Positions 8,038 through 55,891 of a stretch of DNA of 64,000 nt are shown piece by piece. The DNA is from Escherichia coli. GTDB lineage: Bacteria; Pseudomonadota; Gammaproteobacteria; Enterobacterales; Enterobacteriaceae. The stretch is taken from NCBI RefSeq assembly GCF_003991155.1, contig NZ_CP031293.1. One strand, given 5' to 3'. The notes below the pieces were generated by a model, which was not told the origin of the DNA, made no database searches, and saw only the letters and a program-made list of their open reading frames with translations. Made by a program: the position numbers and the translations under genes. Position 1 is the stretch's first letter. Each line of letters begins with the position of its first letter.

Positions 8038-8331
8038 TTAAAAGAAGAAGAAAATCAGCCCGACAATGAGAACAATATCGGCAAGCAATGGGCAAAAAAT
8101 CCCTTGCCAAAGAACCTTCTGCGGACGAAAGCCCACGCCGTGAATAACACCAGCACAGACGGCCCACATCAGCAATAAACCATGCCAGATTTCCAGTTCA
8201 CTGGTCTTCGCGGCGAAACGTGACGGGTCCCAAAACATACATCCTGCTAACAGAAGCGCCATCACGAAGGAAAGCGCCCGCAGGGGGCGCTTGTCCATTA
8301 CCGCATACAAGGTTGCGATAATCTTACTCAT
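8038..8331 (-). CDS. ybgE: Cyd operon protein YbgE
   Basis: 97-aa hydrophobic ORF matching E. coli YbgE, downstream of cydX. Confidence 0.9.
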   Translation of the reverse strand: MSKIIATLYAVMDKRPLRALSFVMALLLAGCMFWDPSRFAAKTSELEIWHGLLLMWAVCAGVIHGVGFRPQKVLWQGIFCPLLADIVLIVGLIFFFF

Positions 8332-8444
8332 CAGATGTCTTCTTGACCGGCTTTGCCTGATTCGACGTGCTCAAGCGCCAGCGCGGTGATTACCCCAAAC
8401 GAACAGGCAAGAAGCGTTCCCAGAATCCATGCGAAATACCACAT
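8331..8444 (-). CDS. cydX: Cytochrome bd-I oxidase small subunit CydX (YbgT), 37 aa
   Basis: Not in the ORF track (below size cutoff). Reverse complement reads ATGTGGTATTTCGCATGGATTCTGGGAACG... = MWYFAWILGTLLACSFGVITALALEHVESGKAGQEDI*; stop overlaps the ybgE start by 1 nt. Confidence 0.85.
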   Translation of the reverse strand: MWYFAWILGTLLACSFGVITALALEHVESGKAGQEDI

Positions 8445-8458
8445 TTTTAGCTCCTTAC

Positions 8459-9598
8459 TTAGTACAGAGAGTGGGTGTTACGTTCAATATCTTCTTTGGT
8501 GATACGACCGAACATTTTCCAGTAACACCAGGCGGTGTAGAGCAGAATGATCGGTACCAGAACCACCGCAACCCAGGTCATGACGTTAAGTGTCAGCTGG
8601 CTGGAAGTTGCATCCCACATTGTCAGACTTGCGTTCATCATGGTGCTGGACGGCATCACAAACGGGAACATTGCGATACCGGCAGTCAGGATGATGCAGG
8701 CCAGCGTCAGGGAGGAGAACACAAACGCCCACGCGGCTTTATCCATACGTGCAGTCAGGATGGTCAGCAGCGGCAGAACCACACCCAGTGCCGGAATAGC
8801 CCACAGAATTGGCGTGTTGTTGAAGTTAACCAGCCATGCGCCAGCTTCACGAACCACTTCTTTATTCAGCGGGTTAGAGGCTGCGTAATGGTCCATTGTC
8901 GATTTCACGACATAACCATCGATACCGTACATCACCCATACGCCAGCCAGTGCGAAGCAGACCAGTGTCACCAGTGCCGCCACCTGAGCCGTTGCACGGG
9001 TACGCAGGTGCAGTTCGCCCACGGTACGCATTTGCAGATAGGTTGCGCCCTGAGTAATGATCATCCCTACGCTCACCACGCCTGCCAGCAGGCCGAACGG
9101 GTTAAGCAGCTGGAAAAAGTTACCGGTGTAGTACAGACGCAGATATTCATCAACGTTGAACGGTACGCCCTGCAACAGGTTACCGAACGCTACACCAATC
9201 ACCAGCGGCGGAACGAAGCTACCAATGAAGATGCCCCAGTCCCACATGTTACGCCAGCGGGTTTCTTCAATCTTGGAGCGGTAGTCAAAACCGACCGGAC
9301 GGAAGAACAAAGACGCCAGCACGAGGATCATCGCCACATAGAAGCCGGAGAACGCAGCGGCATAGACCATCGGCCAGGCAGCAAAGAGTGCGCCGCCCGC
9401 GGTGATCAGCCAAACCTGGTTACCGTCCCAGTGTGGTGCAATGGAGTTAATCATAATTCGACGCTCGGTGTCGTTACGACCGAGGAAACGGGTGAGCATG
9501 CCCACCCCCATGTCGAAACCGTCAGTGACTGCAAAACCAATCAGCAGAACGCCAACCAGCAGCCACCAGATAAAACGCAATACTTCATAATCGATCAT
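8459..9598 (-). CDS. cydB: Cytochrome bd-I ubiquinol oxidase subunit II
   Basis: 379-aa ORF matching E. coli CydB. Confidence 0.95.
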   Translation of the reverse strand: MIDYEVLRFIWWLLVGVLLIGFAVTDGFDMGVGMLTRFLGRNDTERRIMINSIAPHWDGNQVWLITAGGALFAAWPMVYAAAFSGFYVAMILVLASLFFRPVGFDYRSKIEETRWRNMWDWGIFIGSFVPPLVIGVAFGNLLQGVPFNVDEYLRLYYTGNFFQLLNPFGLLAGVVSVGMIITQGATYLQMRTVGELHLRTRATAQVAALVTLVCFALAGVWVMYGIDGYVVKSTMDHYAASNPLNKEVVREAGAWLVNFNNTPILWAIPALGVVLPLLTILTARMDKAAWAFVFSSLTLACIILTAGIAMFPFVMPSSTMMNASLTMWDATSSQLTLNVMTWVAVVLVPIILLYTAWCYWKMFGRITKEDIERNTHSLY

Positions 9599-9613
9599 TT
9601 GACGACTCCTGTC

Positions 9614-11182
9614 TTAGCGTGCCGGCTGAGTAGTCGTGGAAGACTGCTCAAAGTGATAGCGACCGGTTTTCAGGCTGCTTGGGCCGAGGCGTGCAAACTT
9701 GAACATTAAGAACAATTCTGCCACCAGGAACAGGGTATACAGGCCGCAAATCAGCACCATTGAGAAGATGAGATCGCCTGCGGTCAGTGACGAGTTCGCC
9801 ACAGCTGTCGGCAGCACTTCACCGATAGCCCACGGTTGGCGGCCATATTCAGCCACAAACCAGCCCGCTTCTACAGCAATCCACGGCAGCGGAATACCGT
9901 ACAGCGCGGCGCGCAGCAGCCATTTTTTCTCGCCAATGCGGTTGCGGATGACACTCCAGAAAGAGAGCGCGATGATTGCCAGCAGCAGGAAGCCACACGC
10001 CACCATGATACGGAACGCGAAGTACAGCGGCGCTACACGCGGAATGGAGTCTTTGGTTGCCTGTTGAATCTGCGCTTCAGTCGCATCAGCCACGTTTGGC
10101 GTATAGCGTTTCAGCAGCAGACCGTAACCGAGGTCTTTCTTCATGCTATTGAACTGGTCACGAACCGCCTGGTCGGTAGAACCAGAACGCAGTTGCTCGA
10201 GCAGAGAGTACGCCTTCATCCCGTTACGAATGCGTTCTTCATGCTGCACCATCAGTTCTTTCAGGCCGATAACTGGAGTATCCACGGAACGCGTTGCAAT
10301 GATGCCCAGCGCGTAAGGGATCTGGATCGCAAATTTGTTCGTCTCCTCTTCCTGATCAGGAATGCCGAACAGAGTAAAGGCAGCAGGCGCAGGTTGCGTT
10401 TCCCACTCGGCTTCAATAGCAGCCAGTTTGGTTTTCTGCACGTCGCCCATTTCGTAACCAGATTCATCACCCAGAACAATAACAGACAGAACGGCAGCCA
10501 TACCGAAGCTGGCAGCGATAGCAAAGGAGCGTTTAGCGAAGGCGAAGTCACGACCTTTCAGCATATACCATGCGCTGATACCGAGGATGAACATCGCGCC
10601 AGTCACATAACCAGACGCTACAGTGTGAACGAATTTCACCTGAGCAACCGGGTTAAGCACCAGCTCGGAGAAGCTCACCATCTCCATACGCATAGTTTCA
10701 AAGTTGAAATCGGACGCGATTGGGTTTTGCATCCAGCCGTTCGCAACCAGAATCCACAGTGCGGACAGGTTTGAACCGAGCGCCACCAGCCAGGTGACAC
10801 ACATATGCTGAACTTTACCCAGACGATCCCAACCGAAGAAGAACAGACCTACAAAGGTGGATTCGAGGAAGAAGGCCATTAGACCTTCGATTGCCAGCGG
10901 CGCACCGAAGATATCCCCTACATAGTGGGAATAGTAAGACCAGTTAGTCCCGAACTGGAACTCCATGGTCAGACCGGTAGCCACACCCAGAGCGAAGTTG
11001 ATACCAAACAACTTGCCCCAGAACTTGGTCATATCTTTATAAATCTGTTTGCCGGAAAGGACGTAGACCGTTTCCATAATGGCCAGCAGGAACGCCATAC
11101 CGAGCGTCAGTGGCACAAAAAGGAAGTGGTACATCGCGGTCAAGGCAAACTGTAAGCGCGACAGTTCGACTATATCTAACAT
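9614..11182 (-). CDS. cydA: Cytochrome bd-I ubiquinol oxidase subunit I
   Basis: ORF-track frame 9614..11185; second Met ([20 protein letters not shown]...) matches the 522-aa E. coli CydA. Confidence 0.95.
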
Positions 11183-11185
11183 CAT

Positions 11186-11987
11186 GACTCCTTGCTCATC
11201 GCATGAAGACTCCGAGAGTGAACCCCGTTAGAAAGGGTCACACGCATGCCCCAATACAAAATTATTTGCTCGCCTCTATCGTTGCCATTTCATCAAAAGA
11301 GGAAAAGACAATGATAAAAAAGTTACAAATATGTTAATGAATAAACCAAATTGATCCCGTAATTATATTACGCCGCAAAATCCTTACAATAAACAGGTTT
11401 TTATTGAGCAAATTTGCATTTTTCGACAGTGATCAATTTATAGCGAAATTGTCACGATCTCACCAATTTGATCTACGACAATTTATCGTGTTTTGCAGAT
11501 TTTTTTCAAGAATTAAAAATTGATTTATATCAAAACCAACCAAATATGTTAATTATGTATAAACCATAGATCATTGGTGATTTTATTGTTAATTTATTGT
11601 GAAATATTTATGCAACACAATTATTACAATGAAAAGGTATAGATAAAAAACCAGTGTTTTATTTAACAGAACCGCCTTATCCACTTTTTATAATACCAAT
11701 TGATTAGATTAGCCAATTTGTTGCTATTTTACATAACATATTTTTATCAAAGTTAATTGATTGTTGCCTTTATGAGCACCGGCCGTAAGCCCGTTATGTT
11801 ATTGTTTCATTAGTAATAATCACTTAAATGTATCGATGAAACAGGTATGACTTAGCGGGAGTGATTGTTTCTGAGTGAACAGAAACCACTTTCGCCTGAT
11901 AAATGAAAAATGAGCGATTTTTGCAAGTTAGTTTTTCTATAGCCGAGTACGCTCAGCGCCTCGCTTGATTACAATGAGGTTGCTGCT
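11186..11987 (-). promoter_or_regulatory. Long AT-rich cydA upstream region (expected multi-promoter, ArcA/FNR/H-NS-controlled cydAB regulatory region) merging into the accessory-island junction
   Basis: About 800 bp without a convincing ORF upstream of cydA, visibly AT-rich with several TTGAT-like half-sites. cydAB is known to have a long multi-promoter regulatory region; individual sites were not mapped. Confidence 0.45.
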
Positions 11988-12932
11988 ATGAGTCCTGATA
12001 ATATCGGTTCGGCTGTCAATCGCTTCTCAGGTTGGCCATCTAATGATCCTCTAAAAACAGATAACGAATCAATGACATCACCCGTGACTGTGCAGGTAAT
12101 AAAGATGATTGCCGCCATCCTTGACCCATATCGGATAGTCGTTGGAATCGATACACTTTATACAACGCAGCGCGAAACATTTACCTCAGAGAGTCAACAG
12201 CTCATTGAATCAGCATTGCAAACACTTCATGTGATAAATTTAAATAACCTGGAAACAAATCTCGATGAGGACGGTCACTATCTGGCTTTTGGATATAACG
12301 TTGACACTCCTGACAGAATAACCGTTTCTGCTTATAATGAAAAAAAGCCTGGCTGCTATGGCCAATGTCTTTTAATACAGGATGACGAAACAGACTTATT
12401 TAACCTGATAAAAGTTAAAATTTTTGAAGCCAGGCATAATTATGTCGCTCAATTGATGAGCGATCCGGAATTTATGTTCAAATTTAGTTATAGCGCTCAA
12501 CAAAATAGATTAGAACCTCATCTTCTGGTTCCCACTTATTTCCCTCTAAAAACAAACGAACCGGTTACGCAAGAGGATGTACTGTTACTTTATCGTTTCT
12601 TTAAAATGGATGGTGATTTTAATATATTAACATCAGATGAATACATGAGTATCATGACACCTCTGATGAAGTGTGAGCGCAGCATCCACGACCACAACAG
12701 GTATGTGACGGGCAAAGATACCCTTCTTCTGGACTATCCTCCTTCTGGTAACCAGATATATTTCCATATTTTTCCTGACGAATCAGCAACACTAGTCCTT
12801 TATTTTTCAAACAATGACATTGAATGTTTCGTCTTTGAAAGAGATATTCCGAGCCAGTATCGCTTTTTCAAAATGTTTACCAATCTGGCACTGGTTATTG
12901 ATCAGTTAACCGATGCCAATCAAATACTTTAA
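11988..12932 (+). CDS. Hypothetical protein, 314 aa, no recognisable family; AT-rich gene with Ser/Thr/Pro/Asn-rich N-terminus
   Basis: Uninterrupted 945-nt ORF with an AGG-type SD about 9 nt upstream; visibly lower GC than the flanking cyd and glm genes; no TM segments or known motifs detected by eye. Confidence 0.55.
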   Translation: MSPDNIGSAVNRFSGWPSNDPLKTDNESMTSPVTVQVIKMIAAILDPYRIVVGIDTLYTTQRETFTSESQQLIESALQTLHVINLNNLETNLDEDGHYLAFGYNVDTPDRITVSAYNEKKPGCYGQCLLIQDDETDLFNLIKVKIFEARHNYVAQLMSDPEFMFKFSYSAQQNRLEPHLLVPTYFPLKTNEPVTQEDVLLLYRFFKMDGDFNILTSDEYMSIMTPLMKCERSIHDHNRYVTGKDTLLLDYPPSGNQIYFHIFPDESATLVLYFSNNDIECFVFERDIPSQYRFFKMFTNLALVIDQLTDANQIL

Positions 12933-45529: not shown

Positions 45530-46813
45530 ATGGCTGATACAAAAGCAAAACTCACCCTCAACGGGGACACAGCTGTTGAACTGGATGTGCTGAAAGGCAC
45601 GCTGGGTCAAGATGTTATTGATATCCGTACTCTCGGTTCAAAAGGTGTGTTCACCTTTGACCCAGGCTTCACTTCAACCGCATCCTGCGAATCTAAAATT
45701 ACTTTTATTGATGGTGATGAAGGTATTTTGCTGCACCGCGGTTTCCCGATCGATCAGCTGGCGACCGATTCTAACTACCTGGAAGTTTGTTACATCCTGC
45801 TGAATGGTGAAAAACCAACTCAGGAACAGTATGACGAATTTAAAACTACGGTGACCCGTCATACCATGATCCACGAGCAGATTACCCGTCTGTTCCATGC
45901 TTTCCGTCGCGACTCGCATCCAATGGCAGTCATGTGTGGTATTACCGGCGCGCTGGCGGCGTTCTATCACGACTCGCTGGATGTTAACAATCCTCGTCAT
46001 CGTGAAATTGCCGCGTTCCGCCTGCTGTCGAAAATGCCGACCATGGCCGCGATGTGTTACAAGTATTCCATTGGTCAGCCATTCGTTTACCCGCGCAACG
46101 ATCTCTCCTATGCCGGTAACTTCCTGAATATGATGTTCTCCACGCCGTGCGAACCGTATGAAGTTAATCCGATTCTGGAACGTGCTATGGACCGTATTCT
46201 GATCCTGCACGCTGACCATGAACAGAACGCCTCTACCTCCACCGTGCGTACCGCTGGCTCTTCGGGGGCGAACCCGTTTGCCTGTATCGCAGCAGGTATT
46301 GCTTCACTGTGGGGACCTGCGCACGGTGGTGCTAACGAAGCGGCGCTGAAAATGCTGGAAGAAATCAGTTCCGTTAAACACATTCCGGAATTTGTTCGTC
46401 GTGCGAAAGACAAAAATGACTCTTTCCGCCTGATGGGCTTCGGCCACCGCGTGTACAAAAATTACGACCCGCGCGCCACCGTAATGCGTGAAACCTGCCA
46501 TGAAGTTCTGAAAGAGCTGGGCACCAAAGATGACCTGCTGGAAGTGGCTATGGAGCTGGAAAACATCGCGCTGAACGACCCGTACTTTATCGAGAAAAAA
46601 CTGTACCCGAACGTCGATTTCTACTCTGGTATCATCCTGAAAGCGATGGGTATTCCGTCTTCTATGTTCACCGTGATCTTCGCGATGGCGCGTACCGTTG
46701 GCTGGATCGCCCACTGGAGCGAAATGCACAGTGACGGTATGAAGATTGCCCGTCCGCGTCAGCTTTACACCGGCTACGCGCAGCGTGATTTTAAGTCGGA
46801 TATTAAGAAGTAA
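45530..46813 (+). CDS. gltA: Citrate synthase (type II)
   Basis: 427-aa ORF matching E. coli GltA. Confidence 0.95.
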
Positions 46814-46830
46814 AAATGACACCGACAAAA

Positions 46831-46855
46831 CCCTGCGTGTTCACGCAGGGTTTTT
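46831..46855. terminator. Intrinsic terminator hairpin (ccctgcgtg-ttca-cgcaggg + T5) after gltA; A-run on the other side makes it plausibly bidirectional for the convergent TRAP operon
   Basis: Seen directly: aaaa-ccctgcgtgttcacgcaggg-ttttt. Confidence 0.7.
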
Positions 46856-46859
46856 AGTT

Positions 46860-48170
46860 CTACACCAACAGCAAAGATATTGCCGGGATATAGGTAATAA
46901 CCAACAGCAGTAAAATAAGACTAACCAGTAGTGGCACCGCTTCTCGCATAAATTGCCCGACAGAAACCTGCACGGTATTACATACCAGCAGCATCACCGT
47001 TCCGACAGGCGGTGATAACGTTCCTAACGATAAGTTGAGGATCATGATGATGCCAAAATGCACCGGATCAATGCCAAAATGAGCCACCACAGGTTTAAGT
47101 AATGGAACTAATATCAGCAGGATGGCACTACCTTCAAGAAACATGCCAAGCACCAGCAGCAATAGATTGATAATCAATAAAAAGACGTATTTATTATCAG
47201 TCAGAGATGTCACAAACTCCGCAACCGTGATACCTGCCCGCTCAAGGGAAAATATCCAGCCCAGCGCGGCACTCGCCATAATGATTAACATGACCGATGC
47301 CGTCGAACGCGCCGTCTCTGAGAGTGCTGTAAATACATGGCTGATTTTCAGTTCGCGATAAATTACAAAACCAATAAACATCACCAATAATACTGCTACG
47401 GCTCCAGCTTCCGTTGGCGTAAAGATATTTGCCCGAATACCACCGATAACCGCAACAATTAAGAACAGTGCTGGCCAGGCCTGCACCAGCGCCACTGACA
47501 CTTCTTTCGGTTTTGGCCAGTGTTCGCTGGAAGGTTTTAAACCGCGCCGAATAGCTACCAGCCATACAGTGACAATCAACATGGCGGAACACAGCAGACC
47601 GGGCAGGATCCCGGCCATAAACATGGAGCCGATGGAGACATCCGCCACCAGTCCGTAAAGGATCAGTGCAATACCCGGTGGAATAATTGGTGTAATCAGC
47701 GAACCACTTGCCGTTATCGCCGCCGCAAAGCCACGGGAATAACCTTTCTGTTCCATTTCCGGCACCATCATGCGCGATAACATCGCAGCATCCGCCAGGT
47801 TTGAGGCGCTAACGCCGCCCATCATGGTACTGACCAGAATATTAGCCCCACCCAGACCACCGCGCATTCTGCCAATCAACACGTTGGCAATTTGCAAAAT
47901 ACGCGCGGCAATACCGGTATAGCTCATTAACGTGCCTAATAAGATAAAAAATGGAATAGCTAACAGCGAAGGGGTTTGCGTCGTGGCAATCAAACGCTGA
48001 ATTGCTACCATTAACGGCACATTTGAATAGCAAAGGAAGTAGGTCAGAATGCCGCAAAACATCGCCAGCCATACCGGCATATTGATAAATAAACAGATGA
48101 ACATAAGCGGAATGATCATTAGCCAGTTATCCAGCCAGCTTCCCGCCAGTAATTCACTCAATGCTGTCAT
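46860..48170 (-). CDS. TRAP transporter large permease subunit (DctM family)
   Basis: 436-aa polytopic membrane protein; ATGA overlap with the upstream small-permease gene; family call from size, hydrophobicity and the DctP/Q/M gene triad. Confidence 0.85.
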   Translation of the reverse strand: MTALSELLAGSWLDNWLMIIPLMFICLFINMPVWLAMFCGILTYFLCYSNVPLMVAIQRLIATTQTPSLLAIPFFILLGTLMSYTGIAARILQIANVLIGRMRGGLGGANILVSTMMGGVSASNLADAAMLSRMMVPEMEQKGYSRGFAAAITASGSLITPIIPPGIALILYGLVADVSIGSMFMAGILPGLLCSAMLIVTVWLVAIRRGLKPSSEHWPKPKEVSVALVQAWPALFLIVAVIGGIRANIFTPTEAGAVAVLLVMFIGFVIYRELKISHVFTALSETARSTASVMLIIMASAALGWIFSLERAGITVAEFVTSLTDNKYVFLLIINLLLLVLGMFLEGSAILLILVPLLKPVVAHFGIDPVHFGIIMILNLSLGTLSPPVGTVMLLVCNTVQVSVGQFMREAVPLLVSLILLLLVITYIPAISLLLV

Positions 48171-48631
48171 TATTCACCTTCCTTGCGTGGCGTTTTCTTG
48201 ATCAGGTGTAAGGCAGTAAAACAGGCGATACCGATTGCACCAACCGTGACCGCAATATCGATCCAAAACCAGGATATTTTTAATATTTGCGTGGTTTTAA
48301 ATGCTGTTCCGGCAGCTAATTTCCATGCTGACCAAGCCATCACACTCAGTAAAACAATAGATATCAGAGAGACAAATAACGTTAAAACACGTTGCACGCG
48401 TGGTGTCAGTGCATCAGCTAAAAATGGAATCGACAAATGGGTATTATCCCGCTCGGCAACGACCGCACCAAACATGACTACCCAAATCATTAATAAACCG
48501 GAAACCTCTTCTGTCCACTGTAATGGCATATGAAAACAGTAACGCATTATTACCGCAGCAATGGTCATGATTACCAATATAAAGAGCGTTAATACCGCAG
48601 CAACTTCAATCATTTTCCCTAAAAGACGCAT
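48170..48631 (-). CDS. TRAP transporter small permease subunit (DctQ family)
   Basis: ORF-track frame extends to 48667; start set to the internal Met (MRLLGKMIEVAAV...) with an AGAGG SD; start is uncertain. Four predicted TM segments. Confidence 0.75.
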   Translation of the reverse strand: MRLLGKMIEVAAVLTLFILVIMTIAAVIMRYCFHMPLQWTEEVSGLLMIWVVMFGAVVAERDNTHLSIPFLADALTPRVQRVLTLFVSLISIVLLSVMAWSAWKLAAGTAFKTTQILKISWFWIDIAVTVGAIGIACFTALHLIKKTPRKEGE

Positions 48632-48690
48632 AAACACCTCTGCTCTTAACGGTCGGTGCCGAAACACCGACCAGTCCTTATGCCATGAAG

Positions 48691-49659
48691 TTATTTCAGC
48701 TGTTGCTGAATAGTGTCATACAAACCAGGGGTCCATTCCGGGAATTGTTGATAGACTTTTAAGGCTTTTTCTTTGAAAGGGGCGACGTCAGGATAGATAA
48801 TTTCCACGCCCTGCTCCTGCATGGTTTTCAACATTGTCGCATCCTGCTCAGTGGTAATTTTCTGGCTATATAAACCAGCTTCATACGCTGTCTGGTGAAT
48901 AATATCTAACTGCGCAGGTGTCAGGGTACTGAAAAACGCTTCACCACCCAACCATAATGATGTATTGGTCAGATAGTTCACCATTGACAGATATTTCGCC
49001 TGCTCATGCAGTTTTTGCCCATACAGAACAGAAACCGGGTTTTCCACACCATCGATCATCCCCTGCGTCAGCGCCGGATAAACGTCTCCCAGCGGCATTG
49101 GCGTTGGGGTTGCGCCCATTGCTTCAATGGCTTTAATCTGCATAACGTTATTCGGCACGCGGATCTTCATCCCTTTCAGGTCTTCAGGTGTACGAATCGG
49201 TTTTTTAGCAATGATCTGCCTGGTACCGTACAGATAGTTGCTCATGACAATATGCACACCTTTTTCCCGTAGTTTCTGTTCTTTTTGTTTAAACCAGTCA
49301 CTGGCATAAATCGCAAACAGTTTCTGCGGATCTTCGGTTAAATAAGGCCCAAACAATATTCCCAGGTCTGCATCGTAGTCAGTTAAAAATCCCACATCAC
49401 TGATGGTGATAATATTCATCCCCATCAACGCTTGTTCAGTAATATCTTGTTTAGAACCTAACTGTGAACTTGGGTAAAGTTCGAAAACAATATCTCCATT
49501 GCTTTTTTTCTTCACAAGTTCTGCCCAGTGCTTCACTACTGTATCCGCTGGCTCGCCGGGGTTACTTTCATAGGCGATTTTGATAGTTACCGGTGCGGCA
49601 TTCAGCATCGGACTAAATAAAGCGAAAAGAAATAAAAGTGGTGTCAGTAATTTTTTCAT
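48691..49659 (-). CDS. TRAP transporter substrate-binding protein (DctP family), signal peptide present
   Basis: 322-aa ORF with N-terminal signal peptide MKKLLTPLLFLFALFSPMLNA and DctP-like length and composition. Confidence 0.85.
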   Translation of the reverse strand: MKKLLTPLLFLFALFSPMLNAAPVTIKIAYESNPGEPADTVVKHWAELVKKKSNGDIVFELYPSSQLGSKQDITEQALMGMNIITISDVGFLTDYDADLGILFGPYLTEDPQKLFAIYASDWFKQKEQKLREKGVHIVMSNYLYGTRQIIAKKPIRTPEDLKGMKIRVPNNVMQIKAIEAMGATPTPMPLGDVYPALTQGMIDGVENPVSVLYGQKLHEQAKYLSMVNYLTNTSLWLGGEAFFSTLTPAQLDIIHQTAYEAGLYSQKITTEQDATMLKTMQEQGVEIIYPDVAPFKEKALKVYQQFPEWTPGLYDTIQQQLK

Positions 49660-49686
49660 TATTATTACCTGTAAGAGCTTTATCGA

Positions 49687-50883
49687 TTAACGGGGATCTG
49701 CCCGACAGACTGCACTTTTGCTGTAATCAAATGCTTTATACGTTAAAACAAACTCCTGATGTTCCAGTCGTTCTGCGGCACAATATTGACCGTTGGCGAC
49801 ATGTTCAATCACCTGCATAATATCGTCTGCAATATCGTCGAGCGTTGCGCCTTCGCTAATTACACGACCGGCATTAACGTCCATATCGTCAGATAAATGC
49901 TCCCACGTCTGCGGGTTATTACACACTTTAATAATAGGAGCGATCACTGAACCAATAACTGAACCGCGACCTGTGGTAAATAACACCATATGACAGCCAG
50001 AGGCGATAAGTTCCAGTGCTTCTGAGGAATCGTTAATATTCGGATACCCAAAACGAGGTTCACCATCAGGCACCACGTCCATCAACCAAAGCCCAGGAAA
50101 GGGCGTTTGTTGCGTCGGCAAAATAACGCCAGCAATCAGCGCATCGCCCGACTTGGTATAAGCCCCAAGGGATTTTTCTTCCTGAGTGGTTAAGCCGCCT
50201 TCAGCATTACCATTAGAAAAACTCCCCAGCCCCATCAAACTGTAATAACGTTCGGCTTTTGCCATTGCCACTTCGATGGCATCACGTGCCTGCGAACTAG
50301 CCGCGCGCGACATCATATGCTGCTCACAACCAAGCAACTCACCGCTTTCTTCAAAAATACAGGTAGCCCCTTTCTCCAGCAGTTGGTCAAAGGCACGTCC
50401 TACTGCCGGGTTACCCGTGATACCACTGGTGCCATCGGAGCCACCGCAGATAGTACCAACCACCAGGTCGCTCCAGTTCAGGATACAACGCGGTGTATCC
50501 GCAAGCTGTTCCAGCATTTCAGCGACCAACTGCTTACCCAGAGTAATGGTGTTGGTCGTGCCTTTATTTTCCTGAATGACCAGCGTATGGCACGGTCGCC
50601 CACTTTCTCGTACTTCTTGCTCCAGCCGACGGCGATCAAAATTCTCGCACCCCAGCGAAATAATCAGTACACCACCTACGTTGCTATGAATCGCCAGATT
50701 TTTTACCAGACGATAGCCATAATCGCTGGGATAACAACCTGAAAAACCAAAATACTGCACGTCGTGACAAGGAAATCCTTCGGCAATCTTTTTAGCGACA
50801 TGGCTGGCACACTCCACCATAAAGATTACCTGCACAGTATTACGAATACCCGGTCGACCATTTTGCCGTACATAACCTTCCAT
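49687..50883 (-). CDS. UxaA-family (altronate dehydratase / SuyB-like) dehydratase, large subunit
   Basis: 398-aa ORF starting MEGYVRQNGRPGIRNTVQVIFMVECASHVA, resembling the C-terminal catalytic portion of UxaA/GarD-type dehydratases; ATGA overlap with the upstream SAF-domain gene. Confidence 0.75.
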   Translation of the reverse strand: MEGYVRQNGRPGIRNTVQVIFMVECASHVAKKIAEGFPCHDVQYFGFSGCYPSDYGYRLVKNLAIHSNVGGVLIISLGCENFDRRRLEQEVRESGRPCHTLVIQENKGTTNTITLGKQLVAEMLEQLADTPRCILNWSDLVVGTICGGSDGTSGITGNPAVGRAFDQLLEKGATCIFEESGELLGCEQHMMSRAASSQARDAIEVAMAKAERYYSLMGLGSFSNGNAEGGLTTQEEKSLGAYTKSGDALIAGVILPTQQTPFPGLWLMDVVPDGEPRFGYPNINDSSEALELIASGCHMVLFTTGRGSVIGSVIAPIIKVCNNPQTWEHLSDDMDVNAGRVISEGATLDDIADDIMQVIEHVANGQYCAAERLEHQEFVLTYKAFDYSKSAVCRADPR

Positions 50884-51194
50884 TATGCTTTTTCCTCTGG
50901 CTGATAGCCGGCATCATCATGATGAAAAATGGCGATGGCATTGCTGGCAAGATTATGGGAATGCACATGTTCACCCATGGCAATATCGCGAGTGGCGTGT
51001 CCGATAATGGCGCCGTATTTCAGAATCGAATCACCATTGTTCAGCGCTTCGCAGGCCAGTTTGTGACCCAGGGTAACGGAACTACAGGCCACCATTTCCC
51101 CCTCATCCCACCAGACAATATCGCCACTGGCGATGTCATTCAGCGCGACTACACAGTTATCTTTGGCATGTAGCTTTAACGCACGTTTGCGCAT
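50883..51194 (-). CDS. UxaA-family dehydratase small subunit (SAF domain; SuyA-like)
   Basis: ORF-track frame extends to 51299; start set to MRKRALKLHAKDNCVVAL (GGAGG SD 4 nt upstream). Sequence resembles the N-terminal SAF domain of UxaA/GarD, giving a split two-subunit dehydratase. Confidence 0.7.
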   Translation of the reverse strand: MRKRALKLHAKDNCVVALNDIASGDIVWWDEGEMVACSSVTLGHKLACEALNNGDSILKYGAIIGHATRDIAMGEHVHSHNLASNAIAIFHHDDAGYQPEEKA

Positions 51195-51208
51195 AATTCC
51201 TCCGTACA

Positions 51209-51964
51209 TCAGAAGCCGATCAATGCGCCGCCATCCACCACCAGCACCTGACCACTGACAAATGCCGCTGCGTCTGAAGCCAGATAAACCGCAGCCCAAC
51301 CGATATCTTCCGGCTTGCCGAATTTTTTCATCGGTGTCCGCCCCAGGATTTTGTTACGGCGTTCGTCATCACCTTCAATGGCCTTACGCAACATTGGTGT
51401 ATCGATCCAGCCTGGCGCAATACCGTTGACGCGAATCCCATGAACGGCAAGCTCCGTGGTCATACCGCGAATCATGCCGAGATAGGCTGACTTCGCTGCG
51501 CTGTAGCCAGTAACCAGAGGCTGCCCAAGAAATGAGGTCATCGATGCAGTAAAAAGCACACAGCCTTGACCGCGTTGTTTCATATGCGGCACCAGCGCTT
51601 TGGTTAACGCAAATGCGCCGACTACGTGAACGTCGAGTACTGACTCAAAATCACTGACGCTCATCTCTTCAATCGGTTTTTTGCAGTGATTGCCTGCGTT
51701 ATTGACCAGGATATCGATAGCCCCGTGTTCGCTAATAAGCGCATCAACTTTTTCCTGCGCGGCTGCGGTATCCCCGACATCCATTTGTATCCAACTGGCC
51801 TGCGACCCCAATGTTCCGGCGGTCGCTTGCGCCAGCTCGCCGTTCAGGTCAGCAATAATGACCTTCGCCCCGCTGACTATCATGCATTTCGCCATTGCCA
51901 GCCCCAGCCCACTGGCTGCACCGGTGATCAACGCGGTTTTGTTATGTAAAGAAAAAGCATTCAT
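51209..51964 (-). CDS. Short-chain dehydrogenase/reductase (SDR) family oxidoreductase
   Basis: 251-aa ORF with TGAASGLG cofactor-binding motif, NNAG, and catalytic YSAAK. Confidence 0.85.
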   Translation of the reverse strand: MNAFSLHNKTALITGAASGLGLAMAKCMIVSGAKVIIADLNGELAQATAGTLGSQASWIQMDVGDTAAAQEKVDALISEHGAIDILVNNAGNHCKKPIEEMSVSDFESVLDVHVVGAFALTKALVPHMKQRGQGCVLFTASMTSFLGQPLVTGYSAAKSAYLGMIRGMTTELAVHGIRVNGIAPGWIDTPMLRKAIEGDDERRNKILGRTPMKKFGKPEDIGWAAVYLASDAAAFVSGQVLVVDGGALIGF

Positions 51965-51975
51965 GGTGTCGCTCC

Positions 51976-52989
51976 TTAAAGGTCAATGAGGATTTTGGTA
52001 TACGCGCCGGGATCACTTGCCCAGTCGCTAAAAGCATGATCAGCCTGTTCCAGCGGGTAGTGAGCACTCACCAGATTGCTGACCGGATAACGCCCGGACT
52101 CCATCAATGCCAGCACGGCACGAAAATCCGCCACGGTGGCATTGCGCGAACCACGGATATCCAGTTCTTTCATCAGGAACTGCGCACTCTGATAACTCAC
52201 TGGCTGTTTGGCGTAACCGACATAAACCACACGACCGCTAAACGCCACCAACCCTGTAGCCTGTTCAATGGTTTGTTGATTACCCACCGCTTCAATCACC
52301 ACTTCCGGGCCGCGACCGTCATTTAACAGCACCAGTTCTGCCGCCACGTCACATTGCTGCGAATTAAGAAAACGTTGCGCACCGCATTCCAGGGCAATGT
52401 TCTGCTTGCGATCATCAATATCGATAGCAATTACGCGCGCCCCCATGGCGGATGCCGCGGCGATAGCGCCAAGGCCAATTACCCCACAACCGATAACTGC
52501 GACCCATTCACCCACATTAATTTGCGCACGTCTGGCCGCATGTAGTCCCACGGCCAGCGGTTCTACCAGCGCTAACTCATCAACACTTAAGGCATTACAG
52601 ACAATGACTTTATGTGCAGGCATCGTCAGTTGTTGCGCCATCCCCCCCTGACGTTGCACACCAAGAGTTTGGTTGTTTTTACAGGCGTTAGGACGACCGC
52701 TCAGACAGGAGCTGCACACGCCACACTCAGTGCAAGGCAGAACGACCACCCGGTCACCTGGCTTGATCGCCCCTGCCATATCGCCAGTTGCCAGCACCGT
52801 GCCGCCAATTTCATGCCCCGGAATACAGGGATAATTAACCAGCGGATTCAGTCCCCGCCATGTATTGAGGTCAGAACCACACAGTCCGACACGCTCAACA
52901 TTGATTAGCACTTCTCCTTTACCGCAGACAGGTTCGGGGATATCAACAAATCGCGCCTGACTTCCCTGCTCAATGGTTAATGCCTTCAT
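51976..52989 (-). CDS. Zinc-dependent medium-chain alcohol/polyol dehydrogenase (MDR family)
   Basis: 337-aa ORF with GHE.G zinc-site motif, structural-zinc Cys cluster (CTECGVCSSCLSGRPNAC) and GCGVIGLG Rossmann motif. Confidence 0.85.
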   Translation of the reverse strand: MKALTIEQGSQARFVDIPEPVCGKGEVLINVERVGLCGSDLNTWRGLNPLVNYPCIPGHEIGGTVLATGDMAGAIKPGDRVVVLPCTECGVCSSCLSGRPNACKNNQTLGVQRQGGMAQQLTMPAHKVIVCNALSVDELALVEPLAVGLHAARRAQINVGEWVAVIGCGVIGLGAIAAASAMGARVIAIDIDDRKQNIALECGAQRFLNSQQCDVAAELVLLNDGRGPEVVIEAVGNQQTIEQATGLVAFSGRVVYVGYAKQPVSYQSAQFLMKELDIRGSRNATVADFRAVLALMESGRYPVSNLVSAHYPLEQADHAFSDWASDPGAYTKILIDL

Positions 52990-53001
52990 TCATTGCTCTC
53001 C

Positions 53002-53688
53002 TTACATTACGCCGAAGGTTTCAAAGGCCTGTACCGTGCTCATGCCATCACTGATGGCTTTGCGCACTTCACTTTCAGTTGCCACTTTTTCCAGGGCCTG
53101 GGTAATAACTTCTTTCTCAACAACCTGGGGAATAATCAGTAATCCATCACGATCACCAAACACGATATCGCCCGGATTCACCCGCACGCCGTGAAATTCA
53201 ATAGGTACGCCGAAGTCGATGACCTTGCCGCGCGGACCTTGATCTTGTGCGTAAGTGCCATGACAAAAGGTGGGAAATTTCAATTCAAGAATTTCAGCAG
53301 AGTCACGGGCGTAACCATCGAGTACCGCACCTGCTGCTTTCAGATGCATGGCACGGGTAGACATCAACCCGCCCCACAAGGCATAGCGCAGAGAGCTGCC
53401 CGTAGTGATGTAAACATCGTTCTCTTTGAGGGCATCCAGCGCTTCAAACATGATGCCAAACGGTTTTTCGCCAATCGCCGTCTTACCCGACGTCGATTTG
53501 GTTTCGTAAACGTCCGACTCCAGCACCGGCATTGCCCGGCCTGCCACCACCGTATTCACATCCAGCGGCTTGATTGCCGGAGAAACAAACTGGTGCATAT
53601 AGCCCAGCGTGTCGAGAATATCGCCAACCACGGCGGTAAATAGCCGGGTTTTCATCAAAGCAAAAAGTTCGTTATCACTCTTCCACAT
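53002..53688 (-). CDS. RraA-like family protein (class II 4-hydroxy-2-oxoacid aldolase / RraA fold)
   Basis: ORF-track frame extends to 53745 (apparent GTG start); first ATG at 53688 chosen (228 aa). Family call from overall resemblance to RraA/HMG-CHA aldolase proteins; moderate certainty. Confidence 0.65.
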   Translation of the reverse strand: MWKSDNELFALMKTRLFTAVVGDILDTLGYMHQFVSPAIKPLDVNTVVAGRAMPVLESDVYETKSTSGKTAIGEKPFGIMFEALDALKENDVYITTGSSLRYALWGGLMSTRAMHLKAAGAVLDGYARDSAEILELKFPTFCHGTYAQDQGPRGKVIDFGVPIEFHGVRVNPGDIVFGDRDGLLIIPQVVEKEVITQALEKVATESEVRKAISDGMSTVQAFETFGVM

Positions 53689-53951
53689 TATTTTCACCCT
53701 GTAAGCCTGTTTAACAGGTTTACAGGGTAAGGAGAAAAAGCGCACAATACTGCGAAGGGCGTCACGAAAAAGTTGTGTATTTACTATTTCTTCGCCACTC
53801 TTTCACACAATATGTCTTTGATTCGCACTGCATGGCGGGCGCACAGGCGCAGTAGTCTATTGATAATCAAGGGTTCTGGAGGAAAATATGAAGGATACAG
53901 TCCCGGTATTCTGGATTTTACCGACCAGGAAAAAGTACAACAGGAGTAAAA

Positions 53952-54665
53952 ATGAGTGAGAGTGCGTTATTGACCAGCGTAACGTTATCGTCACAGGTCA
54001 AAAATCATATTCTTAATCTGATCGCCGAACAAAAATTGACACCGGGGATGCCAGTTCCCAGTGAAATTCAGTTGATTCAGAAATTGGGCGTCAGTCGGGG
54101 TATTGTGCGTGAGGCCTATCGTTCACTTGCCGCCCTGGGGATTCTGGAAACGCACAGCGGTAAAGTGCCACGGATCAAAAAATTTGATGATGAAGTGCTG
54201 CGCGTGGTGTTTGGATTTGCCCTGGCGACCGAACAAGTAACAACAGAGCAAATTCTTCAAGTACGTCGCTGGCTAGAGTTGGGCGTTGTGGAAGCTGCTG
54301 CCCGTAATGGCGGAGAAGAAGATTTTGCTAACCTACGGGCTGAAATGGCAAAAATCCGCGAACAGTTCGATGATGTCGAAAGCTTTATCACCCATGACAT
54401 CCGCTTCCATCAGTTACTCGCCGTTGCCTCAAAAAATCCGCTTTTTATGATGTTATTGCAGGCATTACATCAGCAATTGCGGCAATCCATCCAGGAGGGA
54501 TTAAACGCCCAAAGCGATCAGAAAGAGTATGGCAATCACATCATCACACTACACCAGAAAATCTGCGACGCTGTGTGTGCCAGAGATGTCGAAACGGCGA
54601 CTCAAGCCATGAAATCACACTTCGACAGCCCGGTCAGTGCACTGATCAATAATTCCTCGCCATAA
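53952..54665 (+). CDS. GntR-family transcriptional regulator (FadR/FCD subfamily)
   Basis: 237-aa ORF with N-terminal GntR wHTH (...LIQKLGVSRGIVREAYRSLAALGILE...) and helical C-terminal FCD-like domain; divergent from the catabolic operon; AGGAG SD. Confidence 0.85.
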   Translation: MSESALLTSVTLSSQVKNHILNLIAEQKLTPGMPVPSEIQLIQKLGVSRGIVREAYRSLAALGILETHSGKVPRIKKFDDEVLRVVFGFALATEQVTTEQILQVRRWLELGVVEAAARNGGEEDFANLRAEMAKIREQFDDVESFITHDIRFHQLLAVASKNPLFMMLLQALHQQLRQSIQEGLNAQSDQKEYGNHIITLHQKICDAVCARDVETATQAMKSHFDSPVSALINNSSP

Positions 54666-54844
54666 GACTTATTTCAGTTCAATCGTTTACTCTTCCCTCT
54701 TTTACAAATGAGAGGGAGACAACGGTACTTAATACGCCCTTTAGCCAAAATCTGTCTTTTTCTTGATTACCGCTATTTTTTCGTTGAGGCGCATTCTTTA
54801 TGCTGTATCGATACACCAAAGGTAAGTTAAACAGGGAGTGACGG

Positions 54845-55891
54845 ATGCCAGTTTTGCAGTGGGGAATGTTATGTGTTCTGTCACTTCTCCTTTCTATTGG
54901 CTTCCTCGCTTTACATCTCCCGGCGGCACTCCTGCTTGGCCCGATGCTCGCCGGGATCATCTTCAGTATGCGCGGGGTTACCCTGCAACTCCCCCGCTCC
55001 GCTTTTCTCGCCGCGCAGGCCATTCTTGGCTGCATGATTGCGCAAAACCTGACCGGTTCGATCCTGACCACGCTAGCGGTGAACTGGCCGATAGTGTTAG
55101 CCATTTTACTGGTGACGCTGCTTTCCAGCGCCATCGTGGATTGGTTATTGGTGCGCTATAGCTCACTGCCTGGAAATACCGGTGCCTGGGGTTCTTCTCC
55201 TGGCGGCGCGGCGGCAATGGTCGCTATGGCGCAAGATTACGGCGCAGATATTCGCCTGGTGGCGTTTATGCAATATCTGCGAGTGCTGTTCGTCGCGGGG
55301 GCCGCTGTTCTGGTCACCCGCATGATGCTGGGCGATAACGCTGAAGCGGTTAACCAGCAGATCGTCTGGTTCCCGCCAGTGAGCATTAATCTCCTGCTTA
55401 CGATTTTGCTCGCGGTCGTTGCCGGTACGGCGGGATGCTTGCTACGTCTTCCTTCCGGCACGATGCTCATCCCGATGCTGGGGGGCGCAGTGCTCCAGTC
55501 TGGTCAGCTCATCACGATTGAACTCCCGGAATGGCTGCTGGCGATGGCATATATGGCAATTGGCTGGCGGATTGGTCTTGGTTTCGATAAGCAAATATTA
55601 CTGCGGGCATTGCGCCCACTGCCACAAATCCTGCTGTCGATTTTTGCTCTGCTGGCTATTTGTGCGGGTATGGCGTGGGGACTGACCCGGTTTATGCATA
55701 TTGATTTTATGACTGCCTACCTCGCCACCAGTCCCGGCGGGCTTGATACCGTGGCGGTCATCGCCGCAGGGAGCAATGCCGATATGGCGCTCATTATGGC
55801 GATGCAAACCCTGCGCCTGTTCAGTATTTTGCTGACGGGACCTGCCATTGCGCGGTTTATTTCAACCTATGCGCCGAAACGTACGGCCTAG
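54845..55891 (+). CDS. abrB: AbrB-family putative transporter (YbgN)
   Basis: 348-aa polytopic membrane protein matching E. coli AbrB by recall and by position next to nei. Confidence 0.85.

Follow-up and report, generated by a model that had tools for sequence, protein, structure and literature searches.

The closest described system to the locus reported here is the L-galactonate route of Escherichia coli K-12, in which the major facilitator superfamily (MFS) carrier LgoT, the GntR-family regulator LgoR, and the zinc-dependent medium-chain dehydrogenase/reductase (MDR) LgoD act together with UxaB, UxaA, KdgK, and Eda. The substrate is dehydrogenated at C5, reduced to D-altronate, dehydrated by UxaA, and finished by a kinase and Eda. 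Two other systems share parts of this chemistry. E. coli IdnD and IdnO are an adjacent pair of a Zn-dependent MDR and a short-chain dehydrogenase/reductase (SDR), which invert C5 of an L-hexonate via a 5-keto acid, and the nonphosphorylative L-fucose pathway of Watanabe et al. (cited in PMC11199699), which dehydrates L-fuconate with an enzyme of the UxaA family, ends in pyruvate and a C3 product without phosphorylation. Here, we examined a nine-gene unit at positions 46860 to 54665 of a 64,000-nucleotide stretch of E. coli contig NZ_CP031293.1 (assembly GCF_003991155.1), the whole of which we call the window. This unit most likely works like the K-12 LgoT/LgoD-UxaB-UxaA route, but it is built of nonorthologous parts and has a different ending; it would represent a known pathway type rather than a new kind of system.

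The unit lies between gltA (45530 to 46813) and abrB (54845 to 55891). The open reading frames (ORFs) and their translations show all nine genes, and RefSeq annotates the same genes on the same strands in a genome whose sequence matches this region at 100% identity. Its features are as follows, with protein lengths in amino acids (aa).

46831 to 46850, no strand: GC-rich hairpin with A4 and T5 at its sides, located where gltA and dctM converge; probable two-way terminator
46860 to 48170, minus strand: DctM, large permease of a TRAP (tripartite ATP-independent periplasmic) transporter, 436 aa; 389.8 bits against TIGR00786 (cut-off 268)
48170 to 48631, minus strand: DctQ, TRAP small permease, 153 aa from the RefSeq start; its stop overlaps the dctM start (ATGA)
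48691 to 49659, minus strand: DctP, the binding protein of the periplasm, 322 aa including a signal peptide that ends in ...LNA/AP; matches PDB 4OVT and 4O8M
49687 to 50883, minus strand: large (catalytic) subunit of a split UxaA/GarD-family dehydratase, 398 aa; PF04295 and PF20629 are found in a 99%-identical protein
50883 to 51194, minus strand: SAF-domain small subunit of the dehydratase, 103 aa; corresponds to the N-terminus of TIGR03248, and its stop overlaps the large-subunit start
51209 to 51964, minus strand: classical SDR, 251 aa, with TGAASGLG and YSAAK motifs; proposed 5-keto-hexonate reductase and functional stand-in for UxaB
51976 to 52989, minus strand: Zn-dependent MDR dehydrogenase, 337 aa, with a GHE motif and a structural site of four Cys; its proposed role is 5-dehydrogenation of L-galactonate/L-fuconate
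[quoted passage not shown]
53698 to 53728, no strand: palindrome of 31 bp, almost perfect (CCCTGTAAGCCTGTTTAACAGGTTTACAGGG), which lies 10 bp upstream of the start codon of the RraA-like gene and is probably an operator
53952 to 54665, plus strand: divergent GntR/FadR-type regulator with an FCD domain, 237 aa; matches the NanR, LldR, and GlcC models, all below cut-off

A preliminary description of the window had reported a minus-strand operon of eight genes, running from the RraA-like gene through the Zn-dependent MDR, the SDR, the SAF subunit, and the UxaA-family large subunit to DctP, DctQ, and DctM, with a divergently transcribed GntR/FCD regulator. Both the ORFs and RefSeq agree with this layout, and the plus-strand regulator matches GntR/FadR proteins over its full length. 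The intergenic gaps, read from the RraA-like gene to dctM, are 12, 11, 14, -1, 27, 59, and -1 nucleotides, and the start/stop overlaps mentioned in that description are true ATGA overlaps at two junctions (SAF/large subunit and dctQ/dctM). Shine-Dalgarno-like sequences precede the starts of the operon genes, and all genes are complete. The positions based on the longest ORFs were correct, but two of the sizes were not: the RraA-like protein has 228 rather than 247 aa and the SAF subunit 103 rather than 138, shorter starts that are backed by RefSeq and by alignment with the Sodalis and Propionivibrio orthologues.

We propose that this operon encodes the uptake and nonphosphorylative breakdown of L-galactonate, and probably of L-fuconate, by steps in the order given here, and we put the probability of this reading at about 0.5. 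DctPQM would import the sugar acid, and the Zn-dependent MDR would oxidize C5 to give a 5-keto acid (D-tagaturonate from L-galactonate). The SDR would then reduce this 5-keto acid with the opposite stereochemistry, yielding D-altronate, such that the two dehydrogenases together would epimerize C5 in the manner of IdnD/IdnO and LgoD/UxaB. The split dehydratase would convert D-altronate to KDG, and the RraA-like protein, acting as a metal-dependent pyruvate aldolase, would cleave the keto-deoxy acid to pyruvate and glyceraldehyde (or lactaldehyde), bypassing KdgK and Eda. A 6-deoxy substrate would be restricted to this bypass, because it offers no 6-hydroxyl to phosphorylate. We are considerably more confident of a broader statement, that the unit is an expressed operon for sugar acids of the L-galactonate/L-fuconate type and ends in an RraA-like cleavage enzyme. 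The general scheme of uptake, oxidation, dehydration to a 2-keto-3-deoxy acid, and aldol cleavage had already been put forward in the preliminary description, and the clade of the binding protein, the MDR-SDR pairing, and the residues and context of the RraA-like protein are all consistent with it.

The transporter points most directly to the substrate. All three TRAP components (DctP, DctQ, and DctM) are present; DctP scores 175 bits against NF037995 (cut-off 50), and DctQ matches the YiaM model weakly (54 bits) and has orthologues that carry PF04290. DctP is 68% identical (E=1e-142) to Oant_3902 of Ochrobactrum anthropi, the protein in PDB 4OVT, and 43% identical (E=1e-80) to the Actinobacillus succinogenes protein in PDB 4O8M. 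We take these structures to be complexes with L-fuconate and L-galactonate, respectively. An AlphaFold2 (AF2) model of DctP, with a mean predicted local distance difference test score (pLDDT) of 90.5, superposes on both structures, with TM-scores of 0.87 and 0.93 to 4OVT. Arg147 and Arg167 of DctP are invariant in 25 members of the clade; their putative equivalence to SiaP Arg147, the arginine expected to clamp the carboxylate of the substrate, is taken from alignment offsets only.

The genomic neighbors of this clade are similarly informative. Substrate-binding proteins (SBPs) with 72-74% identity to DctP adjoin lgoR and lgoD in Citrobacter farmeri and Pectobacterium (74% in the latter), and the Citrobacter transporter is 72-76% identical in DctP and DctM; at this C. 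farmeri lgo locus, the DctM and DctQ counterparts are 76% and 56% identical to ours. Taken over lgoD-type loci, identity to the unit's transporter is 66-76%. Two of the six SBP-clade loci that we checked are lgoR-lgoD loci, while the other four contain either an MDR with UxaB-like and UxaA genes or a set of the type found in our unit. Clade orthologues thus sit at L-galactonate catabolic loci, in keeping with the earlier suggestion of TRAP uptake of an acid sugar. The accompanying statement that the substrate could not be assigned no longer holds, as the similarity to 4OVT and 4O8M and the lgoR-lgoD orthologues would place the binding protein in an L-galactonate/L-fuconate TRAP clade and narrow the substrate to these two acids. 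The structural-genomics study behind 4OVT and 4O8M is also cited for a different, nonorthologous TRAP transporter (Csal_1738-1731) with dual L-fuconate/L-galactonate specificity (PMC5507952). As a separate observation, the TRAP genes at the Citrobacter and Pectobacterium lgoR-lgoD loci (10001-12780 and 10001-12795, respectively, in the numbering of each locus) stand where K-12 has the MFS carrier LgoT, a transporter swap at a conserved locus.

Our strongest argument for the proposed order of steps comes from clusters that share this binding-protein clade. Those of Pseudomonas paeninsulae, Salipiger thiooxidans, and Brucella resemble the unit in their SBPs (65-71% identity) and in having an MDR beside the transporter, followed by a reductase and a UxaA-family dehydratase. 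Unlike the unit, however, all three use a Mannitol_dh reductase and a fused UxaA, and they have no RraA-like gene. The P. paeninsulae cluster consists of TRAP genes, an LgoD-type MDR, a Mannitol_dh (UxaB-like) reductase, a fused UxaA, and a PfkB kinase, and S. thiooxidans has the same set without the kinase. Brucella sp. IR073, whose SBP is 90% identical to the 4OVT protein, combines the Mannitol_dh reductase and fused UxaA with an MDR of the unit's own type (48% identical to the unit's MDR and 79% to that of Mesorhizobium, against 35% to LgoD). Phyllobacterium has only this type of MDR, the TRAP transporter, and a split SAF and large-subunit dehydratase. Mesorhizobium sp. BAC0120 has all nine gene families, eight of them at 44-69% identity and the regulator at 25%, although its gene order differs from that of the unit and its regulator comes from another FCD lineage. 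With the transporter held constant, therefore, a UxaB-like reductase is exchanged for an SDR, a fused UxaA for a split dehydratase, and KdgK or another kinase for an RraA-like protein. These one-for-one swaps suggest that the unit uses different proteins to carry L-galactonate along the known path through D-tagaturonate and D-altronate to KDG.

We also considered whether the TRAP region of the extraintestinal pathogenic E. coli (ExPEC) strain BEN2908 could be the same unit and rejected it: it occupies a different locus and has YjjN-like and UxuB-like genes without UxaA or RraA. This accessory region, GR21, comprises a regulator, a YjjN-like MDR, a UxuB-like reductase, and a TRAP transporter (PMC12928451), and it looks like another TRAP-linked L-hexonate module in E. 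coli.

The preliminary description had listed two dehydrogenases and a split UxaA-family dehydratase, and the Zn-dependent MDR, the SDR, and the SAF and GD_AH domains are indeed all recognized. The top matches of the MDR are LgoD, RspB, and xylitol/sorbitol dehydrogenases. Its nearest E. coli paralogue is LgoD (35% identity), with IdnD at 25% and Ahr at 24%, and it belongs to a clade with proteins of Mesorhizobium, Brucella, Phyllobacterium, Sodalis, Rhizobium, and Shimia (47-79% identity). Given the Brucella context, L-galactonate 5-dehydrogenase activity is plausible for this enzyme. Every lineage that has both dehydrogenases (Escherichia, Sodalis dw_96, Rhizobium, Shimia, and Mesorhizobium) encodes the MDR directly upstream of the SDR. 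Among E. coli paralogues, the SDR is nearest to IdnO (38%), followed by KduD (35%), and the best-placed sugar-acid enzymes among the 60 PDB matches listed are DhuD and gluconate 5-dehydrogenase. The pair thereby recalls IdnD/IdnO, although the latter operates in the idonate-to-gluconate series and ends in a kinase rather than in a dehydratase and an aldolase. Orthologues of the SDR with 72-77% identity are found in UxaC-linked clusters. Where the core of SDR, dehydratase, and RraA-like protein occurs without an MDR, UxaC is often present (Propionivibrio, Citrobacter amalonaticus, and an uncultured bacterium); UxaC also yields tagaturonate.

The dehydratase has its domains split over two genes, with the SAF subunit corresponding to positions 2-79 of TIGR03248 and the large subunit to positions 180-490. 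The large subunit matches the GarD structure 6U7L (E=1e-31) but misses the GarD equivalog (163 bits against a cut-off of 731), and the SAF subunit is 61% identical to a Sodalis SAF protein that carries PF08666. The large subunit shares 28% identity with UxaA of K-12 and 33% with the fused UxaA proteins encoded in TRAP-linked clusters, and it is not a UxaA orthologue. Its counterpart in a Sphingomonas L-fucose cluster is closer, at 58% identity, and the Rhizobium and Phyllobacterium versions reach 70-71%. L-fucose-type clusters include genes for an aldo-keto reductase, an L-fuconolactonase-like protein, a mutarotase, an SDR resembling 2-keto-3-deoxyfuconate (KDF) dehydrogenase, and a fumarylacetoacetate hydrolase (FAH)-family hydrolase. 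Since D-altronate, L-galactonate, L-fuconate, and D-arabinonate have a common C2-C4 configuration, the enzyme could take any of these four acids, which leaves room for a role as an altronate dehydratase.

Compared in full, the unit and the K-12 route share no orthologous component. A TRAP transporter takes the place of an MFS carrier, an SDR that of the Mannitol_dh-family UxaB, a split dehydratase that of a fused UxaA, and an RraA-like protein that of the kinase and Eda, and the unit is a single operon. The L-fucose pathway differs in other respects. It starts at the sugar, with a dehydrogenase, a lactonase, and a mutarotase, whereas the unit starts at the acid. It ends in either KDF 4-dehydrogenase and the FAH hydrolase or the L-KDF aldolase FucH, an enzyme of the dihydrodipicolinate synthase (DHDPS) type, whereas the unit relies on an MDR, on an SDR of another kind, and on an RraA-like protein.

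The RraA-like protein is not the RNase E regulator RraA, since it scores only 42.7 bits against the RraA equivalog NF006875 (cut-off 136) and is 228 aa long, compared with approximately 160 aa for RraA. Nor is it an orthologue of the HMG/CHA aldolases (named for 4-hydroxy-4-methyl-2-oxoglutarate and 4-carboxy-4-hydroxy-2-oxoadipate; TIGR02798, 53.9 against 304.5; NF006731, 61 against 179), and its context is one of sugar acids. It does share the long-form fold and catalytic residues of these aldolases (LigK, PcmE, and the Pseudomonas putida F1 enzyme, 3NOJ). The AF2 model of the RraA-like protein (pLDDT, 89.7) aligns with 3NOJ over 235 columns with a TM-score of 0.78, while for short RraA proteins the alignment extends to no more than about 165 columns. 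Residues G106, R128, D129, and E205 align with Gly101, Arg123, Asp124, and Glu199 of 3NOJ and are invariant in 31 sequences of the subfamily; in HMG/CHA aldolases, these residues contribute to the pyruvate pocket, enolate stabilization, and metal binding, with Gly101 in the pocket, Arg123 catalytic, and Asp124 and Glu199 as metal ligands (PMC5065237). The chemistry expected of the two, a metal-stabilized pyruvate enolate, is the same, even though identity is approximately 20%, His75 is not kept, and the HMG/CHA enzymes act in aromatic ring cleavage. The conserved residues, fold, and sugar-acid context accord with the earlier placement of this protein in an aldolase family. The closest solved relative is PDB 5IR2 (27% identity; TM-score, 0.79), deposited as a gut-metagenome "cellulase"; its RraA/aldolase fold makes that name doubtful.

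We next surveyed the gene neighborhoods of this subfamily. A scan of one genome per species gave 142 relatives, from which we examined the best 80 loci (54-99% identity), clustering all ORFs around the RraA-like gene in 79 of them. The 80 loci span Proteobacteria, Bacteroidota, Firmicutes-type metagenome-assembled genomes (MAGs), and others, with 55-68% identity across phyla. In these loci, which are not phylogenetically independent, the RraA-like gene is accompanied by a split UxaA (13 loci), a UxuA-like dehydratase (24), an IlvD/Edd-like dehydratase (7-8), or a member of the enolase superfamily (11), and KduI is present in 7. KdgK was found in none of the 79 loci and Eda, weakly, in one. Since four unrelated dehydratase families stand alongside and KdgK in no case does, the simplest reading is that the RraA-like protein is a metal-dependent aldolase for KDG-type 2-keto-3-deoxy acids, dispensing with the kinase and Eda, and we propose this function for it. 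Atlantibacter and Izhakiella have a minimal four-gene cluster of an IlvD/Edd-like dehydratase, the RraA-like gene, an MFS carrier, and an IclR regulator (8253-12860 in the numbering of these loci). This cluster is like the xylonate clusters yagF-yagE and yjhG-yjhH of E. coli, the RraA-like gene taking the aldolase slot. In Flavobacteriia, the RraA-like gene lies within complete sets of a sugar porter, an SDR, a lactonase, and a dehydratase.

A literature search found no paper linking RraA-like proteins with fuconate or reporting a KDG-type aldolase function for them. One RraA-like enzyme known to act on a 2-keto-3-deoxy sugar acid is FlDet of Flavobacterium sp. UMI-01, a 2-keto-3-deoxy-glucarate (KDGR) dehydratase/decarboxylase (PMC8563752). 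We rejected it as an orthologue and assign it to another subfamily because of its different N-terminus (MTTLSASTKEKLK...; 237 aa) and its different partner gene, a ketoglutarate-semialdehyde dehydrogenase, whereas the unit has no aldehyde dehydrogenase. We also noted that some Flavobacteriia have two RraA-like paralogues in one polysaccharide-utilization-type locus, often followed by a conserved trio encoding a CoA-transferase, an enoyl-CoA hydratase, and a protein of approximately 380 aa of no assigned function, a trio that may process the aldehyde or acid from the cleavage step. A conserved 139-aa protein without an NCBIfam match accompanies this trio. Finally, NCBIfam NF009399 describes a 501-aa protein in which an FAH domain is fused to an RraA-like domain, which hints at a functional link between two types of enzyme that finish keto-deoxy-acid pathways.

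Regulation of the operon probably involves the divergent GntR protein and the palindrome at 53698 to 53728. The protein matches the NanR, LldR, GlcC, and PdhR models over its full length, all below cut-off, and it is 62% identical to a Sodalis regulator that carries PF00392 and PF07729. E. albertii, E. whittamii, C. amalonaticus, and two Sodalis genomes keep the palindrome core, ACCTGT-N3-5-ACAGG, at the corresponding site ahead of the leading catabolic gene, and Propionivibrio has half-site-like sequences. Judging from its sequence and placement, the palindrome fits the GT...AC operator of a FadR-type repressor and is probably the operator of the GntR/FCD regulator, which would repress the operon from this site and be released, probably, upon binding a pathway acid. 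A consensus promoter scan of the region returned 12 sites against 11.7 expected, no excess over chance.

The full-length unit is present in 660 of 5,426 complete E. coli genomes (12%, or about one in eight). Identity over the region is 100% in all of the top E. coli genomes among the matches listed, whose sources were humans, cattle, poultry, pigs, a dog, mink, and water. Between gltA and abrB, K-12 instead carries the fimbrial genes ybgOPQD; similarity to K-12 breaks off at 46807, some nucleotides short of the stop codon of gltA, and returns at 54756, which is 89 bp ahead of abrB. The last two codons of gltA (46808 to 46813) read KK* here and KR* in K-12. In place of the gltA terminator of K-12, the stretch 46827 to 46855 holds another hairpin, at 46831 to 46850, that is able to serve both gltA and dctM. 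Its folding energies are -18.7 and -19.0 kcal/mol for the two strands, with z-scores of -5.1 and -4.8, and it is probably a two-way terminator belonging to the unit. We saw no mobile-element signatures (insertion sequence elements or tRNA genes) at the junctions, in either sequence or annotation.

None of the 660 unit-bearing E. coli genomes contains a junction between the unit and ybgOPQD, so the two cassettes exclude each other within E. coli. The earlier view that the unit stands in place of ybgOPQD is thus accurate for this species but not beyond it, as its relatives carry both side by side: E. albertii and the divergent "E. coli" SCPM-O-B-8794 have the order abrB-ybgOPQD-unit-gltA, and E. 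whittamii has abrB-unit-ybgOPQ. The E. coli arrangement has one junction in common with each of these sister-taxon layouts, which suggests that two ancestral layouts recombined at a hot spot to produce it. Compared with E. albertii, all nine genes are free of gaps and stops, with dN/dS ratios of 0.01-0.10, and no higher than 0.17 in any gene. Their dS values of 0.6-0.9 (about 2.1 for the GntR gene) are comparable to the divergence of the flanking genes (gltA, 0.50; abrB, 0.76), and the locus is therefore old rather than a recently acquired island. The unit is an old Escherichia resident under strong purifying selection that is absent from most E. coli, and it is neither a recent import nor a pseudogene; the possibility, raised beforehand, of a pseudogenized operon is contradicted by its complete genes and low dN/dS. 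That the unit is a silent relic without present function is highly improbable. It is missing from 88% of complete E. coli genomes and its promoter scan was no better than chance, as a relic would allow, but the constraint on nine genes without a frameshift or stop at this level of divergence, the complete identity of the top-listed genomes from varied hosts and water, and the conservation of the operator-like palindrome all speak for a functioning operon.

Several observations weigh against the proposed pathway as we have ordered it. Most E. coli strains already have lgoTRD, and K-12 also has uxaA, kdgK, and eda, which would make the L-galactonate part redundant. The MDR is only 31-36% identical to four LgoD-type enzymes that are 41-84% identical among themselves, and thus falls outside the LgoD clade. 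The dehydratase is nearer to enzymes of L-fucose-type clusters (54-71%) than to true UxaA (28-35%), and it may dehydrate L-fuconate or L-galactonate directly, in which case C5 epimerization would be needless beforehand. Further genes of the Shimia and C. amalonaticus clusters encode an aldo-keto reductase and an L-fuconolactonase-like protein, a combination that fits either order of steps. In addition, the counts of loci lack phylogenetic independence, and our literature search found no paper describing this E. coli unit. Sequence alone would allow either order, epimerization before dehydration or dehydration before epimerization or cleavage.

These points lead to the main rival explanation, which we consider possible but clearly less probable than our own: dehydration may come first, converting L-fuconate or L-galactonate to L-KDF or L-2-keto-3-deoxygalactonate (L-KDGal). 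The RraA-like protein could then cleave these products directly to pyruvate and L-lactaldehyde or L-glyceraldehyde, leaving both dehydrogenases to handle the aldehyde. Alternatively, the MDR and SDR could epimerize C5 before cleavage by taking L-KDGal through 2,5-diketo-3-deoxygluconate to KDG, as in agar degraders, where the conversion of L-KDGal to L-2,5-diketo-3-deoxygalactonate (L-DDGal) and on to KDG by two dehydrogenases provides a published precedent (PMC5943477). The 58% identity of the large subunit to the enzyme of a Sphingomonas cluster with an aldo-keto reductase, a KDF-dehydrogenase-like SDR, an FAH hydrolase, and a mutarotase favors this order, as do the still closer Rhizobium and Phyllobacterium dehydratases, the aldo-keto reductase and L-fuconolactonase-like genes of Shimia and C. 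amalonaticus, the Phyllobacterium cluster with nothing but MDR, TRAP, and split dehydratase, and the resemblance of the SDR to KduD and DhuD. However, the occurrence of the same SDR in UxaC clusters without an MDR better fits a tagaturonate reductase acting before the dehydratase, Brucella pairs the unit's type of MDR with a UxaB-like reductase and a true fused UxaA, and the MDR falls in the polyol/sugar-acid branch rather than the aldehyde-reductase branch, with LgoD and RspB as top matches and Ahr at a distance. A variant of the "route 3" L-fucose pathway, in which the SDR would oxidize C4 of L-KDF to give the 2,4-diketo acid and the RraA-like protein, in place of the FAH hydrolase, would split this into pyruvate and L-lactate, is quite unlikely. 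Sphingomonas does have dehydratase, SDR, and FAH genes where the unit has dehydratase, SDR, and RraA-like genes, the NF009399 fusion joins an FAH and an RraA-like domain, and on chemical grounds the cleavage of a hydrated 2,4-diketo acid amounts formally to a retro-aldol step giving pyruvate enolate. Yet we rejected the SDR as an L-KDF 4-dehydrogenase: its identity to the SDR in the Sphingomonas L-fucose cluster, judged from its neighbors to be the candidate KDF dehydrogenase, is only 35%, and the 60 PDB matches listed include no enzyme so named. Moreover, the minimal Atlantibacter and Izhakiella clusters pair dehydratase and RraA-like protein without any dehydrogenase, and the MDR would be left without a role.

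Two further explanations concern the substrate rather than the order of steps. The pathway might serve D-tagaturonate, D-altronate, D-galacturonate, or D-arabinonate in place of L-galactonate and L-fuconate, given that the core module comes together with UxaC in Propionivibrio, C. amalonaticus, and an uncultured bacterium and that substrates of the UxaA family share their C2-C4 configuration. We regard this as very unlikely, as the transporters of those clusters are of other kinds (the SBP of Propionivibrio shows 27% identity, and Sodalis has an MFS carrier), whereas our unit lacks UxaC and its transporter is of the kind found at lgoD-type loci. The least probable explanation is the sulfonate catabolism considered in the preliminary description, with a SuyAB-type sulfolactate sulfo-lyase and TRAP import of a C3 sulfonate. 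Its sole support is the two-subunit SAF and large-subunit architecture, which is common to many members of the family that do not act on sulfonates. Neither the unit nor the DNA next to it encodes a sulfite exporter, a sulfolactate dehydrogenase, or a sulfoacetaldehyde enzyme, and no such genes are found among the cluster genes of nine relatives' loci, although not all outer flanks are annotated. All examined relatives of the large subunit (54-81% identity) sit with sugar or sugar-acid genes, galactarate dehydratase is the sole NCBIfam match for either subunit, and DctP, from a clade tied to lgoD, is 26% identical to the isethionate-binding protein IseP, against 68% to 4OVT. We accordingly regard the sulfonate option as unsupported and retain the epimerize-then-dehydrate route for L-galactonate and L-fuconate as our preferred reading.

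If this preferred reading is true, the unit would confer a growth phenotype on L-galactonate and L-fuconate and provide a second, kinase-independent route to pyruvate. For L-galactonate, it would be a second route beside lgoTRD, and its distinctive value would lie in L-fuconate use and independence from KdgK and Eda: the K-12 L-galactonate pathway could not finish L-fuconate, because the keto-deoxy product cannot be phosphorylated at C6. The reading would also give a function to a large uncharacterized subfamily now named only "RraA family protein" in many genomes. We suggest, tentatively and with somewhat less confidence than we place in the pathway itself, that in E. coli this subfamily would open up L-fuconate, so that one strain in eight would have a private nutrient derived from oxidized fucose. 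Bacterial handling of L-series keto-deoxy-hexonates has been described as unresolved in a review (PMC11219438), and the enzymes of the unit are candidates for it. The unit is a clean presence/absence polymorphism that alternates with a fimbrial operon and has been under selection since before the split between E. coli and E. albertii, and strain-level differences in sugar-acid use such as this can shape which E. coli lineages settle in the gut.

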